Source: a virus (taxonomy: Duplodnaviria; Caudoviricetes). From it: a stretch of 62,168 bases of DNA. Each line of letters begins with the position of its first letter. Within the stretch, counting starts at the first letter, position 1. Of this stretch, positions 13,057 through 62,168 are shown piece by piece. The DNA lies in the IMG/VR virus record IMGVR_UViG_3300018432_000570, positions 1 to 62,168 of that record; one strand, 5' to 3'. The notes under the pieces are model-generated. The model searched no databases, was not told the DNA's origin, and worked only from the letters and a program-made list of their open reading frames with translations. Made by a program: the position numbers and the translations under genes.

Positions 13057-13137
13057 GGCCGTGCCGCCCCATCGCCGCCGCGATAAGGGGTATGGTATCC
13101 GGTCGTTCAGCCGCCCGAGACCGGGCAGGCCAGACGC

Positions 13138-13173
13138 TAAAAAGCCCCGGAAATCCGCAGATTTCCGGGGCTT
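13138..13173 (-). terminator. Rho-independent terminator (original host tRNA terminator)
   Basis: AAGCCCCGGAAATC-cgca-GATTTCCGGGGCTT hairpin followed by a T-run on the minus strand, just past the displaced tRNA 3' end. Confidence 0.8.
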
Positions 13174-13177
13174 GTCT

Positions 13178-13231
13178 ATGGTGGGCGTAGCAAGGATTGA
13201 ACTTGCGACCCCTGCGATGTCAACACAGTGC
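13178..13231 (-). repeat. Left att site: duplicated 3' part of tRNA-Val(GAC)
   Basis: 54-bp direct repeat of 58887-58940, single mismatch (13189 A vs 58898 G). Confidence 0.97.
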
Positions 13232-57540: not shown

Positions 57541-57942
57541 ATGGGCGCCGAACTGCCCCTCACCGCCCGGCACTGGTTCAGGCAAAGCGAGCTTGGTAAG
57601 GGCATCCGTCTGGACGGCGACCAGCTCGACCTCCTCAATGCCATCGGCGTCGGGGAGATCATCGCCACGGCCCTCGCTCAACACCAGAGGAACCAATGCC
57701 AGCAACGCGCCGCCCGAAGCCGCTCTACCAGCGGGGAGAATTCCGGCTCTACAAAGGGCGTGGGGGCCTCGAAGTCGTCTGGTACGACCAGCGGCGAAAG
57801 CGGGAGCGAAGCAGCAGCGCGGGCACGTCGGACGAGAGGAAGGGGCGGATTGCGCTCGATAACCTCTACGTCGAAACTCACGGCGGCGTCCCGGTCTGTC
57901 CCGAGTGCGGACGGGCCCGAGACCAAAGCGGCGAACTCGTAA
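57541..57942 (+). CDS. Hypothetical protein overlapping the integrase (excisionase position)
   Basis: GAGGGGGGA RBS; first ~55 aa protein-like, remainder overlaps int. Confidence 0.5.
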   Translation: MGAELPLTARHWFRQSELGKGIRLDGDQLDLLNAIGVGEIIATALAQHQRNQCQQRAARSRSTSGENSGSTKGVGASKSSGTTSGESGSEAAARARRTRGRGGLRSITSTSKLTAASRSVPSADGPETKAANS

Positions 57943-58871
57943 CCGTGCTGGTCGCCAATTACCTCGAAACGAAGCCGGCCGGCGATGCGGTCCACCCTCG
58001 CCTGGCGCACATCCTGGACTTCCAGGAGGCGACCGGTCGGGTGGAAGATCGCTGCGATGTTGTCGATTCGAAGTGGGCGGGGGATTTTCGGGCATGGCTA
58101 GCGGGCAAAGGCGATCGGAGCCGGGCCCCAGGCACGATCGAGAATAGCCTGATCCAACTCGCCGCGGCCTTTCGTGCCGGCGGTGTCGCTCCCGCCTTCA
58201 CCACCATTCCAACCATCGAGTTGAACCGGACACCGCAGTACCGGGCCGATGTCCCGACGTTGGCGGCGATGTTCAAATATGCGCTCGAGCCCGACTTGAA
58301 GCGCGACAACCTGCTTCGGTTCCTTCGCGCCAGCGTGGCGACGTGGGGCCGGCCGGACGCCGTCTACGACATCAGCACGGAGCGCAAGCGGGCTCAGTGG
58401 CATCCCCGGGCAAGCGTCCTGTCCCTGAACCCGGCTGGGCGCCGCCAGACGCGCAAGCGCCGGGCAACAGTGCCGATCGCCAAGCAGTTCGCGCCGCACC
58501 TGAACGAGGTCTCAGGCTTCTACGTGCCGGTGTCGAGCGTGAAGCGCGCTTGGCAATCCATGGCGAAGGAGTTGAAGCTTCCGGATGAAGGCGAGGCCGG
58601 CACGAAGCTGGTCCGTCGATCGATGATGACGCTCGCTCGCAAGCGTTTGGGCGAAGAGCATTGGATCCAGGGTCGGATGATGGCGGGACACGTCCCGGTC
58701 AACGTGAGCGACCTCTACGCCTTGTTCGATCCGGCCAATCTCGGGCGCGCTTTGGCGGTCACGGAAGCAATAATTGAAGAGATCGAATCACTCGCGCCAG
58801 GAGCGTTTTACCGCGACTTTACCGCGCAGGGTGGTAATGTGTCCCCTATCGCGAGGGCAAAAAATGCATAG
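57696..58871 (+). CDS. int: Tyrosine integrase
   Basis: TWGRP (R), KLVRR, MAGH, DLY; ends 16 bp before the att core. Confidence 0.85.
   Translation: MPATRRPKPLYQRGEFRLYKGRGGLEVVWYDQRRKRERSSSAGTSDERKGRIALDNLYVETHGGVPVCPECGRARDQSGELVTVLVANYLETKPAGDAVHPRLAHILDFQEATGRVEDRCDVVDSKWAGDFRAWLAGKGDRSRAPGTIENSLIQLAAAFRAGGVAPAFTTIPTIELNRTPQYRADVPTLAAMFKYALEPDLKRDNLLRFLRASVATWGRPDAVYDISTERKRAQWHPRASVLSLNPAGRRQTRKRRATVPIAKQFAPHLNEVSGFYVPVSSVKRAWQSMAKELKLPDEGEAGTKLVRRSMMTLARKRLGEEHWIQGRMMAGHVPVNVSDLYALFDPANLGRALAVTEAIIEEIESLAPGAFYRDFTAQGGNVSPIARAKNA
58807..58827 (+). repeat. Putative integrase arm-type sites (right)
   Basis: TTTACCGCG-ac-TTTACCGCGC. Confidence 0.65.
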
Positions 58872-58886: not shown

Positions 58887-58940
58887 ATGGTGGGCGTGGC
58901 AAGGATTGAACTTGCGACCCCTGCGATGTCAACACAGTGC
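58887..58940 (-). repeat. Right att site
   Basis: 54-bp repeat of 13178-13231. Confidence 0.97.
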
Positions 58941-58962
58941 TCTACCACTGAGCTACACGCCC
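58888..58962 (-). tRNA. tRNA-Val(GAC)
   Basis: GGGCGTGTAGCTCAGTGGTAGAGCACTGTGTTGACATCGCAGGGGTCGCAAGTTCAATCCTTGCCACGCCCACCA: full cloverleaf, encoded CCA. Confidence 0.97.
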
Positions 58963-59081: not shown

Positions 59082-62000
59082 TCAGGCCGCCCGGGTGAGC
59101 TCTTGAGGGGGATCCCCTCCCGAATGCGCGGCGACGTCCCGGGCGATGTCCAAGAGCCGTTCCTCCCAGACGATTGACCCGAGGTCGCAGTAACGCAGGT
59201 CGTCCAGATCGAGATAGGCCAGGCCGGCGGCGCTCCTGGCCGCTTCCCAGCTCCGGACGACCGACCGGTAGGGCCGTTTCGTCGCGGGGTTCGGGACCAG
59301 CCAGGCGCATCCCGGCCAGCGGGGAAGCTCGGCGAGCAAGGTCAGGGCGGCGACCGTGAGGCGCAGCTCGCGTATCTTCTCGCCGCCCGGCATGTCGAGG
59401 CGCCACACGCCCACCGCCAGGTCGAGCTGGTCCCATCGGGCGTTGAGGATCTCGCCCGGACGCGCGCCCGTCAGCATCAGCAGCGAGAGGATGAAGCGCA
59501 GCTGCCGGTTATAGCCGTTGCGAGCGGCCTCGAGCAGCCTTTCCGCCTCGGCCGCGGTCAACAGGATATCGCCCTGGCCCCGCCGGTCGAACCGGAAGCT
59601 GCCCTCGAGAGGATTCGAATCCGCCCCGGGCAGCTTCAGCTCGACGGCCAGCGCCCACATCCGGCTGAGCAGGCTATGAAGCCGACTGTCGGTCCCGGGG
59701 GGCAGGCCTTCCGCCTCGCCCTTCGCCGCCAGCCAGGTGACGATATCCGTTTCGCTTACCTGATCGAGCCGAAGCTGGCCGAATCGGGGCAGGATATGGT
59801 TGCGCAGATCGCGCTTGGCGCCTTCGCGGCTTTGCTCGTCGCCGCGCACGCTTTCGAGATAGCGCTCCGAAACCTCCCGGAAGGTCGGAACGTCGGAGCC
59901 TGCAAGGCCTGCCGACAATTGCATGTGGATCGGTACGGCCGGCTCTCGCGATCGCGGCGCCAGGGTGAGGCCCAGCTTCGTGGCGAGCTCCTCGAGCGGC
60001 GCCGGATTCTCGCCGTCCCCGACATCCTTGTCCGGATCTCCGGGGTTCGGCAGGCCGAGCGTCCCGAGCACGTAAGGCGAGACCCGGTGGCTGGTGCACA
60101 ATCCCCCGTCCCCGTCGTCGACCAGCTCCTGCTCGAAGGCGATTCCGTGCTGCCGGCCCGCCGCCCGGCTGACCCGGGCGAAGGCGAGCTGGCCGTCGCC
60201 GAAGTCGACGACGATCAAGGTGCCGAGCGGCGCCTCCGAAGCCCCTTCGATCAGGGCTCCCGATTCCGACAGGTTGCGCATGATCGCCGTACGGTAGCGA
60301 TGGCCGTGGATGATCCCGACCTTGCGGTACATCGCCTGGCGGTTGCTTCTTTGCCTGGCCGGACCCGCCGGCTCGATGACCCAGTCTCCCGCGTCGAGCC
60401 GACGGCTCAGCTCGTCGCAGCTCAGCGCCTTGCTGTAGACCCAGCCCTGGATATGGCTGACCCGAAGGCTTCGGATCAGCTGGAGCTGATCCATATATTC
60501 GATACCCTCGGCCGTGGTCTCCATGCCGAGGGCTTCCGCCAGCGCGACGATGGCCGCGATGATGGCCCCGTTCCTCGATCCAGGCAAAGTCGCGGCGCGA
60601 ACGAAGGTCTGGTCGATCTTGATCTTGTCGAAGGGTGCCGTTCGCAAATAGCCGAGCGAGGAATAACCCGTCCCGAAATCGTCGAGGGCGAGGCGGACCC
60701 CGATCTCCTTCAGCGTCGTGAACATCGAATCCGTCGAAGGGGATTCGCCGACGAACACCCCCTCAGTGATCTCGAGCTCGAGCCGGTCCGGCGACAGGCC
60801 CGACGTATCGAGGGCCGACTGCACGATGAGGGGCAGCGACTCTTCCATGAACTGGATCGGCGAGACGTTCACCGCGACTCGAAGCTTCACGGGCCAGCCT
60901 GCCGCGTCCTCGCACGCCTTGCGGAGCGCCCATTCCCCCAGGGGGCCGATAAGGCCCGCTTCCTCGGCGATCGGGATGAACAAGGCCGGGGAGATCGGTC
61001 CGCGGCCCGGATGATCCCACCGCATGAGCGCCTCGACGCCGGTGATGCTGTTGTTGGCCGCACTGACGATGGGCTGGTACGCGAGGCTGATTTCTCCTCT
61101 CGAGAGAGCGTCGCGAAGGTCTTCCTCGAGCGCTCTTTTGTCTTCCGCGACCCGCAACAGATCACTCGAGAAGAACCTGAACCGGCCTCGCCCCCCCGAT
61201 TTGGAGGCATAGAGCGCGAGGTCGGCATTGCGGATCAGCTCGTCTCGCGAGGCTCCGTCCACCGGAGCGACGGCGACTCCGATCGACGCTCCGACGATGC
61301 ATCGGCTGCCCTCGACCCAATAAGGCTGCGAGAGAACGGCGATGATGTCCGCCGCCATGTCGCCGATGATCCCGCGGTCCTCGCAATTGGGAAGGATGAT
61401 CTGGAATTCGTCGCCACCCAAACGGAAAACCTTCTCGCGATCGCCGACGATCCGAGTCAGGCGCTCGGCGACCTGCTTGAGGAGGGCGTCCCCGGCGGGA
61501 TGGCCGAGCGTGTCGTTGACCTGCTTGAACCGGTCTAGGTCGATCAGCATGACCGCACACGGCTTGTCCCGATGCGCGGTCTCCAGCAGGCTGTTATCCA
61601 GGATCTCGGACATCCGGCGCCGGTTGGGCAGCCCGGTCAGCGAATCGTATTTGGCGAGCTGCGAGGCATGTTCGGACGACTTGCGCTGCTCGGTCACGTC
61701 GACGGCGCTGCCCCGATAGCCGGTGAACCGGCCCGTCTGGTCGAATTGCGGACATCCCGACACCGACCAGCAGCGGGGATCGCGGGCCTTCGCTGCACGG
61801 ACCGTGACCTTTTCGAAAGCCGATTGCCTGGCGAGAAGAAACGGAAGCGTCCGGCGGCCGGTCAAATCGTCGTCGGCCTGAGCGAAGACTTCTGCGAATC
61901 GCGTTCCCACCAGGGGGGTGTCGTCGTCGCTCAGCGCTTGGGCGATATTGTCGCTGATGTAGGTGAGCTGTCCGTCCGGGTCGATCGACCAGAACCAGCC

Positions 62001-62168
62001 GTGGCCGGATTCCTCGAAGCTCTTCATGAGCAGCAGCGCCTCGGTAGGGTCGGCGGAACGCGCGCCCGGGCCCGTCCGCTTGCTCGTGGGCGAATCGGTG
62101 CCCGCCCCGGGTCCGCCACGCGATGTCGGCGGCTTTTTGCCGAAACCCCAAATATAAGCTTGTGTCAT
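59082..62168 (-). CDS. PAS-GGDEF-EAL-PilZ protein with C-terminal degenerate tyrosine-recombinase domain
   Basis: RLGGDEF; EALMRW, ELEITE, DDFGTGYSS, EGIE; NLSESG; then PTFREV..YL, LRNHILPRFG, LTGARPGEIL..RW, DDLR. Confidence 0.9.
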   Translation of the reverse strand: MTQAYIWGFGKKPPTSRGGPGAGTDSPTSKRTGPGARSADPTEALLLMKSFEESGHGWFWSIDPDGQLTYISDNIAQALSDDDTPLVGTRFAEVFAQADDDLTGRRTLPFLLARQSAFEKVTVRAAKARDPRCWSVSGCPQFDQTGRFTGYRGSAVDVTEQRKSSEHASQLAKYDSLTGLPNRRRMSEILDNSLLETAHRDKPCAVMLIDLDRFKQVNDTLGHPAGDALLKQVAERLTRIVGDREKVFRLGGDEFQIILPNCEDRGIIGDMAADIIAVLSQPYWVEGSRCIVGASIGVAVAPVDGASRDELIRNADLALYASKSGGRGRFRFFSSDLLRVAEDKRALEEDLRDALSRGEISLAYQPIVSAANNSITGVEALMRWDHPGRGPISPALFIPIAEEAGLIGPLGEWALRKACEDAAGWPVKLRVAVNVSPIQFMEESLPLIVQSALDTSGLSPDRLELEITEGVFVGESPSTDSMFTTLKEIGVRLALDDFGTGYSSLGYLRTAPFDKIKIDQTFVRAATLPGSRNGAIIAAIVALAEALGMETTAEGIEYMDQLQLIRSLRVSHIQGWVYSKALSCDELSRRLDAGDWVIEPAGPARQRSNRQAMYRKVGIIHGHRYRTAIMRNLSESGALIEGASEAPLGTLIVVDFGDGQLAFARVSRAAGRQHGIAFEQELVDDGDGGLCTSHRVSPYVLGTLGLPNPGDPDKDVGDGENPAPLEELATKLGLTLAPRSREPAVPIHMQLSAGLAGSDVPTFREVSERYLESVRGDEQSREGAKRDLRNHILPRFGQLRLDQVSETDIVTWLAAKGEAEGLPPGTDSRLHSLLSRMWALAVELKLPGADSNPLEGSFRFDRRGQGDILLTAAEAERLLEAARNGYNRQLRFILSLLMLTGARPGEILNARWDQLDLAVGVWRLDMPGGEKIRELRLTVAALTLLAELPRWPGCAWLVPNPATKRPYRSVVRSWEAARSAAGLAYLDLDDLRYCDLGSIVWEERLLDIARDVAAHSGGDPPQELTRAA

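Follow-up and report, generated by a model that had tools for sequence, protein, structure and literature searches.

The gene analyzed here lies at the end of the window, the whole 62,168-nucleotide stretch of IMG/VR virus record IMGVR_UViG_3300018432_000570, and encodes a 1028-residue enzyme of cyclic di-GMP (c-di-GMP) turnover that ends in a fragment of a tyrosine integrase. We hold it to be very probable that this fragment is dead as a recombinase, arose by a single old fusion, is constrained, and is unrelated to both the tRNA gene and the phage beside it. With a probability of about 50%, the fragment (below, the module) serves as an exapted noncatalytic accessory domain, most likely via protein contacts or by controlling the oligomerization or activity of the enzyme. 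Such a role is suggested because the active site and the DNA-contact surface of the former recombinase appear to be neutralized. A piece of an Arm-type island integrase, comprising the core-binding (CB) domain and the catalytic domain as far as box II, was fused once, in a Sphingomonadales ancestor, to a PAS-GGDEF-EAL-PilZ protein of ~745 residues. Cut just past box II, it has codiverged with the enzyme and been kept by purifying selection. In the clade of the window protein, the changes that would have neutralized the recombinase active site and the DNA-contact surface are lysine to glycine, histidine to aspartate, a conserved arginine to aspartate or glutamate, an acidic CB domain, and a module charge of 0. 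What was left may dock a partner or set the state of the GGDEF/EAL enzyme and is unlikely to grip DNA in the manner of an integrase.

Domain architecture of the fusion protein

The gene forms a single unbroken open reading frame (ORF) with an ATG start on the minus strand. A stop codon is present 10 codons 5' of the ATG, in the contig past the window end, so the frame is complete. The genome from which the window derives was placed in Allosphingosinicella (order Sphingomonadales) via its named relatives. The features of the gene are as follows.

59082 to 62168, minus strand: whole gene, coding for PAS, GGDEF, EAL, and PilZ-like domains plus a truncated integrase module (ORF list and Pfam); stop codon at 59082 to 59084
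61683 to 61988, minus strand: PAS sensor domain, residues 61 to 162 (Pfam PAS_4, E value of 2.9e-6)
61185 to 61655, minus strand: GGDEF diguanylate cyclase domain, residues 172 to 328 (PF00990, E value of 4.3e-44)
60429 to 61124, minus strand: EAL phosphodiesterase domain, residues 349 to 580 (PF00563, E value of 1.2e-65)
60024 to 60356, minus strand: PilZ-like domain and conserved extension DGDGGLCTSHRVSPY, residues 605 to 715 (weak Pfam PilZ match and motif counts)
59895 to 60023, minus strand: poorly conserved linker, residues 716 to 758 (alignment and a ratio of nonsynonymous to synonymous substitution rates [dN/dS] of 0.32 to 0.49)
59619 to 59894, minus strand: remnant of the SAM-like integrase CB domain, residues 759 to 850, net charge of -3 (Phage_int_SAM_3, E value of 3.4e-6)
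59184 to 59618, minus strand: remnant of the integrase catalytic domain up to box II, residues 851 to 995 (Phage_integrase, profile positions 3 to 82 of 172)
59085 to 59183, minus strand: clade-specific C-terminal tail with WEERLLDIARDV, residues 996 to 1028 (weakly constrained)

The integrase-like part is recognized by two Pfam models, both above their cutoffs. Phage_int_SAM_3 (PF14659) covers residues 762 to 813 with 27.6 bits (cutoff, 22.6), and Phage_integrase (PF00589) covers residues 870 to 948 with 31.3 bits (cutoff, 27.1), the latter match being confined to the profile positions listed above. Profile matches of the module in the PDB were XerA, XerD, and lambda Int (E values of 5e-8 to 1e-4), and a search of the ESM Atlas returned generic integrase clusters only. 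In the tail, the stretch WEERLLDIARDV (positions 59133 to 59168, residues 1001 to 1012) looks amphipathic by eye and is kept in the closest species; it might be a stand-in for the lost C-terminal integrase helices.

In the enzyme part, the GGDEF motif occupies residues 251 to 255 (positions 61404 to 61418), and the EAL motifs EALMR and DDFGTG are intact at residues 379 and 496, respectively. Within the family, GGDEF is intact in 61 of 63 full-length members, EALMR is found in 62 of 63, and DDFGTG is found in all 63. With the I-site placed by the spacing rule of PleD, the window protein has GDRE at this position instead of RxxD, and none of the 61 family members with a GGDEF motif has the I-site arginine. 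An earlier note, made from the letters of the window alone, had described one 1028-residue frame with PAS, GGDEF, EAL, PilZ-like, and integrase parts, having intact GGDEF and EAL motifs, no RxxD, the arginine of TGARPGE, DDLR in box II, and no GH...Y; the ORF list, the Pfam matches, and the motif counts agree with this description.

The PilZ-like domain is the least certain of the assignments, as the Pfam match (PF07238, residues 605 to 657) has an E value of 0.06 and, with 14.1 bits, stays under the 22.5-bit cutoff. A PilZ motif is composed of RxxxR and (D/N)xSxxG. The window protein has RNLSESG at residue 631, and RN(L/V/I)SxxGA is present in it and in 60 of the 63 members; RxxxR is absent from the window protein and present in about 10 of these 60. 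Paralogues score better for PilZ, with E values down to 2e-7. The membrane-anchored paralogues of ~880 to 910 residues (e.g., G000 C65) have the same enzyme core and PilZ-like domain, preceded by an N-terminal membrane region not seen in the fused proteins. Directly after the PilZ-like domain (positions 60072 to 60107, residues 688 to 699), the near-invariant extension DGxGGLCTSHRVSPY is found, which is absent from the membrane-anchored paralogues. It is shared with module-less sister proteins of ~730 to 775 residues (e.g., P0235 and P0251), which have the same enzyme core and PilZ-like domain and stop 50 to 70 residues past the extension with no integrase part. Overall, the gene product is predicted to be a cytoplasmic, PAS-controlled c-di-GMP enzyme with a cyclase and a phosphodiesterase domain.

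The integrase remnant is predicted to be inactive in recombination

Judged from its residues, the fragment should be unable to recombine DNA, because the tyrosine, the His/Trp III region, the catalytic lysine, and the box II histidine are all lost. Box I of the window protein reads TGARPGE (residues 900 to 906) and retains Arg 903. Box II reads LDDLRY (residues 988 to 993), with the histidine replaced by Asp 989 and with Arg 992 retained, and the protein ends 36 residues past Arg 992 without LGH...Y. The same holds for the family: all fused proteins end 4 to 55 residues past the box II arginine, many of them with ...HDLRHxxxxSW, and the free relatives continue for ~47 to 70 residues beyond this point. 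The tyrosine region was absent from all 63 full-length proteins (with one uninspected regular-expression match, in P0021) and from all 40 species ORFs matching the module profile. The tyrosine-bearing piece of the free relatives matches just two other recombinase genes in the window genome, so a split partner gene that would supply the missing piece was not found there.

A comparison of conserved positions gave a consistent result. Among 94 free integrases, 38 alignment columns are at least 80% conserved. In 25 fused modules, 22 of these columns retain that level of conservation, another 12 are preserved in part, and 4 are lost. One of the lost columns is an asparagine in the CB domain. Another is the catalytic lysine of the beta-hairpin, found in all but one of the 94 free integrases; the position is lysine or arginine in 3 of 25 fused modules and Gly 928 in the window protein. 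The remaining two are an arginine two residues before box II (87 of 94 free and 0 of 25 fused; Asp 987 in the window protein) and the box II histidine (93 of 94 free; aspartate in 17 of 25 fused, including Asp 989 of the window protein). The columns were matched to the R-K-H-R-H/W-Y catalytic set, which we take to be that of the family. Of the 25 fused modules, 24 still have the two active-site arginines. The earlier note had called the integrase part recombination-dead, and the absence of the tyrosine and of the His/Trp III region, together with the changes of lysine to glycine and histidine to aspartate, upholds this view.

A single, old fusion of an Arm-type integrase to a preexisting enzyme

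The nearest free relatives of the module are integrases of ~390 to 430 residues from the same bacterial family, with 34 to 39% identity over ~235 to 260 residues. They belong to the Arm-type (P4-like) tyrosine integrases of Sphingomonadales islands (e.g., L020, L022, and L023), whose CB and catalytic domains are homologous to the module and share fold-determining motifs with it, among them NxQLK...LLLTGxR, W...W, PNPxTxKPY...SW..AR, and xDLR. Free Arm-type integrases have an Arm-DNA-bind_3 N terminus and a full catalytic domain (profile positions 2 to 170 of 172), which runs through ...HDLRH...LGH...RY(A/S)HL. In the window protein, by contrast, ~750 residues of c-di-GMP machinery take the place of the arm domain, and the last 50 to 60 residues, the catalytic lysine and histidine, and the positive charge are missing. 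The fusion point is located in the arm/CB linker, immediately before the (I/V)PTF...RYL helix.

Two trees, both from quick or FastTree searches, were inspected for the number of fusion events. In the module tree (124 rows, from a sample drawn with a profile made from fused members), 17 fused modules and 8 tail-less fragments lie behind one branch with an SH-aLRT support of 99, and 94 free integrases and 5 other sequences lie on the opposite side. In the enzyme-part tree (51 rows), which was rooted on the membrane-anchored paralogues, one clade of 33 with a support of 100 comprises 32 fused proteins and 1 nested module-less protein, and 11 of the module-less sisters form a basal grade. Because the fused forms group together on both trees, they very probably go back to a single event, which is old and predates the spread over several Sphingomonadales families. 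The recipient was already a cytoplasmic PAS-GGDEF-EAL-PilZ protein with the DGxGGLCTSHRVSPY extension, and the two parts codiverged afterwards. The nested module-less protein, P0206, represents one secondary loss of the whole module.

The CB domain has been lost repeatedly. It is absent from 21 of 40 species ORFs, and the well-supported branches force at least three independent losses on the module tree and four on the enzyme tree. Since about half of the species do without this domain, the catalytic-domain remnant is likely to be the conserved core of the module.

The fusion is widespread in Sphingomonadales

The distribution of the fusion was examined in a genus sample of 25 genomes, a family sample of 401 genomes, and a species scan with one genome per species. 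The fusion was present in 4 of the 25 genus genomes (G000, G015, G020, and G021), and the C-terminal part was matched in 9 of the 401 family genomes, representing eight genera, with frames of 869 to 1126 residues; the ORFs extracted from these matches all combine GGDEF, EAL, and the integrase part. In a collection of 5.8 billion proteins, 50 of 50 matches to the C-terminal part (565 to 1799 residues) carry EAL and 48 carry PF00589, the proteins being named just "EAL domain-containing protein" or "diguanylate cyclase." The species scan gave 43 loci, every one in Sphingomonadales and some in cultured strains. Carriers include Sphingomonas humi JCM 16603, Sphingomonas sp. DBB INV C78 (complete genome), Sphingomonas sp. 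LaA6.9, Allopontixanthobacter sediminis KCTC 42453, Sphingomicrobium astaxanthinifaciens JCM 18551, and Novosphingobium lentum NBRC 107847. Forty of the 43 species ORFs match the module profile, and counts based on these 40 leave out L059, L071, and L081. Among 104 proteins (clusters) sharing the PilZ region, 91 contain the module. Uniqueness to the window assembly, which the earlier note had named as grounds for discarding its idea, was not observed, since the fusion recurs in genus, family, and species genomes.

The module is under purifying selection

Selection was estimated as dN/dS (NG86) for the closest pairs, formed by the window gene and those at L045 and L046, whose modules are 77 to 82% identical. 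For the CB and catalytic remnants together, dN/dS was 0.14 to 0.23 (CB alone, 0.15 to 0.23), compared to 0.07 to 0.14 for the GGDEF and EAL part, 0.32 to 0.49 for the linker, and 0.39 to 1.0 for the tail; these values are rough, because dS amounts to 0.35 to 0.9 even in the closest pairs. More distant pairs gave 0.25 to 0.6 with dS saturated. The module thus appears to be under purifying selection, with the flanking linker and tail not constrained. Neutral evolution of the integrase part, which the earlier note had likewise named as grounds for discarding its idea, does not fit the value of 0.14 to 0.23.

Charge, CB loss, and the question of DNA binding

Over the homologous region, the median net charge is +14 for the 94 free integrases (range, +2 to +22) and 0 for 17 fused modules (range, -7 to +11), and the window module likewise stands at 0. 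By domain, the net charges are distributed as follows.

Free integrases: CB domain, +4; catalytic remnant, +8
Basal fused clade, which keeps HDLRH: CB domain, +3; catalytic remnant, +6
Clade of the window protein: CB domain, -6; catalytic remnant, +2
Window protein: CB domain, -3; catalytic remnant, +2

A basic residue is found in at least 60% of the free integrases at 20 columns; in the clade of the window protein, 87 of the 199 cells at these columns (44%) are still basic, and acidic residues have been gained at 10 columns. The loss of charge and the recurrent disappearance of the CB domain speak against DNA binding by a classical C-clamp in proteins of this clade. In the earlier note, the fragment had been proposed to be a DNA-binding module linking c-di-GMP turnover to DNA; a net charge of 0 versus +14, a CB domain at -3, the retention of 44% of basic cells, and at least three CB deletions do not bear this out.

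Upstream of some of the fused genes, a 16-nucleotide box, TTTACGCTTCCGMAAT, is located 32 to 116 nucleotides before the first ATG. G310 (L038), G317 (L039), and G198 (L043), which represent three different genera, each have one exact copy; the box is present with two mismatches in G415 (L040) and is absent from the genus of the window. The box reads like a promoter, with a -35 element TTTACG and a -10 element TTATTG separated by 18 nucleotides and with a conserved TTCCGAA in the spacer.

Alternative explanations for the module

Several findings weigh against an accessory domain that acts through protein contacts. There is no conserved neighbor gene or known partner protein, the arguments about the module surface are drawn from sequence counts, and the dN/dS values on which retention is argued are rough, as stated above. 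The two kept arginines would fit continued binding of phosphate, be it of DNA or of a nucleotide. In combination with a basal clade whose module is basic and a CB domain under selection, they make some nucleic acid or phosphate binding possible. Specifically, the basal clade (G310, G317, G331, and relatives) has a basic module with HDLRH and may bind DNA, the window protein could do so through a local patch, and the conserved upstream box could be a candidate operator. On these grounds, a DNA-tethered "trigger" enzyme is the main competitor, although we regard it as a tentative alternative: the dead module would read DNA, either core-type sites or its own promoter, and the protein would function as a c-di-GMP-responsive regulator or as a source or sink of c-di-GMP located on the chromosome. 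Retention of the box I and box II arginines in 24 of 25 modules, the dN/dS of 0.15 to 0.23 for the CB domain in the clade of the window protein, the basic module of the basal clade, and the unique upstream box in G310, G317, and G198 (with two mismatches in G415) are compatible with this explanation, as are the precedents TnsF (PMC10293859) and PdeL (PMC5052742). It is disfavored by the charge of 0 and the acidic CB domain of the window module, by the loss of most basic residues of the free integrases with acidic ones gained at 10 columns, and by the absence of the CB domain, the main sequence-reading domain of recombinases, from 21 of 40 species ORFs. The box, in turn, does not occur in the genus of the window, precedes the CB-less G198 gene, and is promoter-like. 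It is rather doubtful that the module still reads DNA, at core sites of the recombinase type or at the conserved promoter box, and that the family represents a chromosome-tethered, c-di-GMP-sensing trigger enzyme with a recombinase fold, in which the two arginines would hold the phosphate of DNA or of a nucleotide.

The other explanations are considerably less probable than the accessory domain. The integrase part might be a functionless passenger whose decay is still to come. The almost free evolution of the linker and the tail, recurrent CB losses and at least one loss of the whole module (P0206), and a high G+C content, which eases the keeping of long open frames, could be accounted for in this way. 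However, a module dN/dS of 0.14 to 0.23, the presence of the module in 32 of the 33 proteins that form the fused clade across several families, its many invariant columns, and a C-terminal end point that is the same in all members render a relic improbable. Still less credence can be given to a regulator or guard of mobile-element recombination, in which the tyrosine-less module would pair or compete with island integrases at attachment (att) sites under the control of c-di-GMP. The module does derive from Arm-type island integrases that are common in the same family (34 to 39% identity), and the window gene adjoins an occupied phage att site. Nevertheless, the nine fusion genomes each contain that single match at an E value of ≤1e-10 (some candidates being unscored), and of the four PF00589 matches in G000, one is the fusion, two are about as large as Xer, and the fourth contains an internal TGA. 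Moreover, the putative integrase of the adjacent prophage is unrelated (see below), and a tRNA gene is linked to just 5 of 47 loci. The C-terminal segment of recombinases mediates protomer contacts, and it is this segment that is missing. For the guard of att sites suggested in the earlier note, the one observation that bears on the idea is that the window genome lacks a close free integrase. An assembly or gene-calling artifact, i.e., two genes joined by error, has next to no probability. The source is a metagenome-type assembly of 3.6 Mb in 79 contigs, and frame breaks occur at two related loci from metagenome-assembled genomes (MAGs), L059 and L081, but independent assemblies, among them complete genomes and cultured strains, show the same unbroken architecture; its occurrence in DBB INV C78, S. 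humi JCM 16603, and N. lentum NBRC 107847 refutes the artifact.

Relation to known systems

Two known systems offer partial parallels. TnsF of Tn6022-like Tn7 transposons is an inactivated tyrosine-recombinase derivative with a zinc finger that selects the DNA target (PMC10293859). The module resembles TnsF in having lost the tyrosine site and in being co-opted for a role other than recombination. Unlike TnsF, it is fused to a signaling enzyme, has no conserved transposon or neighbor genes, and is doubtful as a DNA binder. The second parallel comprises the trigger phosphodiesterases, i.e., active EAL or GGDEF-EAL enzymes that bind a specific macromolecular target and control it according to c-di-GMP, the enzyme thereby being an effector as well; in E. 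coli, PdeL binds DNA through a LuxR-type helix-turn-helix and PdeR binds a transcription factor (PMC5052742). The window protein is similar to these in being a GGDEF-EAL protein with a possible macromolecule-binding part, target binding by it being a proposal. The integrase-derived domain sets it apart, as PdeL and PdeR involve no such domain.

A full-text literature search found no description of a fusion between a c-di-GMP enzyme and an integrase. The novelty lies in the recognition and evolutionary framing of the family and not in new sequences, because public databases already contain the proteins, their two Pfam domains being precomputed. Multidomain GGDEF-EAL proteins abound, and how the output of each is targeted is a central problem of c-di-GMP signaling. 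The present family would add to this an order-wide case in which the integrase of a mobile element has been trimmed, inactivated, and kept under selection inside a c-di-GMP enzyme. It also provides a natural series for the reuse of the recombinase fold, consisting of prefusion proteins, proteins with a basic module, proteins with an acidic module, CB-less forms, and a secondary loss. If the module did read DNA, second-messenger turnover would be directly linked to integrase-type DNA recognition, a connection not found in the literature searched. For annotation, the case calls for caution, as a "Phage_integrase" match that lies next to a tRNA gene and a prophage does not, in this instance, mark an integrase and has no relation to that prophage.

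The adjacent tRNA gene and prophage

Two features outside the gene delimit a prophage.

58888 to 58962, minus strand: tRNA-Val(GAC), attL side of the prophage, 119 nucleotides downstream of the stop codon of the fusion gene
13178 to 13231, no strand assigned: distal direct repeat of the 3' part of tRNA-Val, attR side (match of 53 of 54 nucleotides)

The prophage extends from 13178 to 58941 (45.7 kb), is inserted at tRNA-Val(GAC), and encodes a portal protein (E value of 3e-97), a large terminase (E value of 1e-47), tail/peptidase proteins, lysis proteins, and a DNA methyltransferase. In the three closest species, the tRNA-Val gene runs straight into the homologue of window positions 13130 to 13177, and these species therefore have an empty site. 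tRNA-Val is the true phage attachment site, and the tRNA attachment site that the earlier note had seen beside the gene is thus real, given the distance of 119 nucleotides, the repeat, and the empty site in relatives. The prophage itself is a recent insertion that is unrelated to the fusion. Window position 13189, inside the distal att repeat, is the sole base that differs between the window and the genome contig.

At the att end of the prophage, a 391-residue ORF is located at 57696 to 58871 on the plus strand, 17 nucleotides from the 3' end of the tRNA gene. It had no match in Pfam, PHROG, or the PDB; its 512 relatives are mostly called "hypothetical," and a few are named integrase or carry PF13102. 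The ORF is presumably the integrase of the prophage, and its family looks like one of divergent recombinases that are missed by standard models. No relation to the fused module was found (hhalign probability of 0.5%).

The linkage between fused genes and tRNA genes is rare. Adjacency to tRNA-Val is restricted to the closest species, with distances of 64 to 65 nucleotides at L045 and L046 and of 2.3 kb at L059, and a tRNA gene was found within 500 nucleotides downstream at 5 of 47 distinct loci. Near the integrases of the free relatives, none was found at 14 loci with flanks of 1.2 to 1.5 kb. Because tRNA linkage is rare and the prophage integrase is unrelated, the hotspot position does not explain the fusion. 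The suggestion of the earlier note that the integrase of an old element had been captured at the hotspot is accordingly not supported by the single old fusion, the linkage at 5 of 47 loci, the 0 of 14 free relatives, and the unrelated prophage integrase. An origin of the fusion through a deletion or an inversion in an island linked to a tRNA gene was likewise discarded, as such linkage is rare and was not seen within the 1.2- to 1.5-kb flanks of the nearest free integrases.

A different tRNA gene, tRNA-Gly(CCC), follows the membrane-anchored PAS-GGDEF-EAL-PilZ paralogue in three species (L007, L009, and L010), and in G020 it lies 148 nucleotides downstream of the fused gene (L003/L014) on the opposite strand.

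Neighboring genes and further observations

A promoter and terminator scan of the spacer between the window gene and the tRNA gene found nothing. Among the data sets listed as matching the gene, none was of RNA, and the only full match was a DNA run from a soil metagenome, which may be the source of the window DNA. By tblastn, the related MAG loci L059 and L081 show frame changes, three in the former and one, at the junction between the PilZ region and the module, in the latter; these are either sequencing errors or signs of decaying copies. No synteny was found in the flanks of the fusion loci. Among ORFs of at least 90 residues at 12 loci, a single one was common to at least three loci. This ORF of 270 residues, which precedes the G317 gene and runs on the opposite strand, matches ORFs at the G015 and G331 loci.

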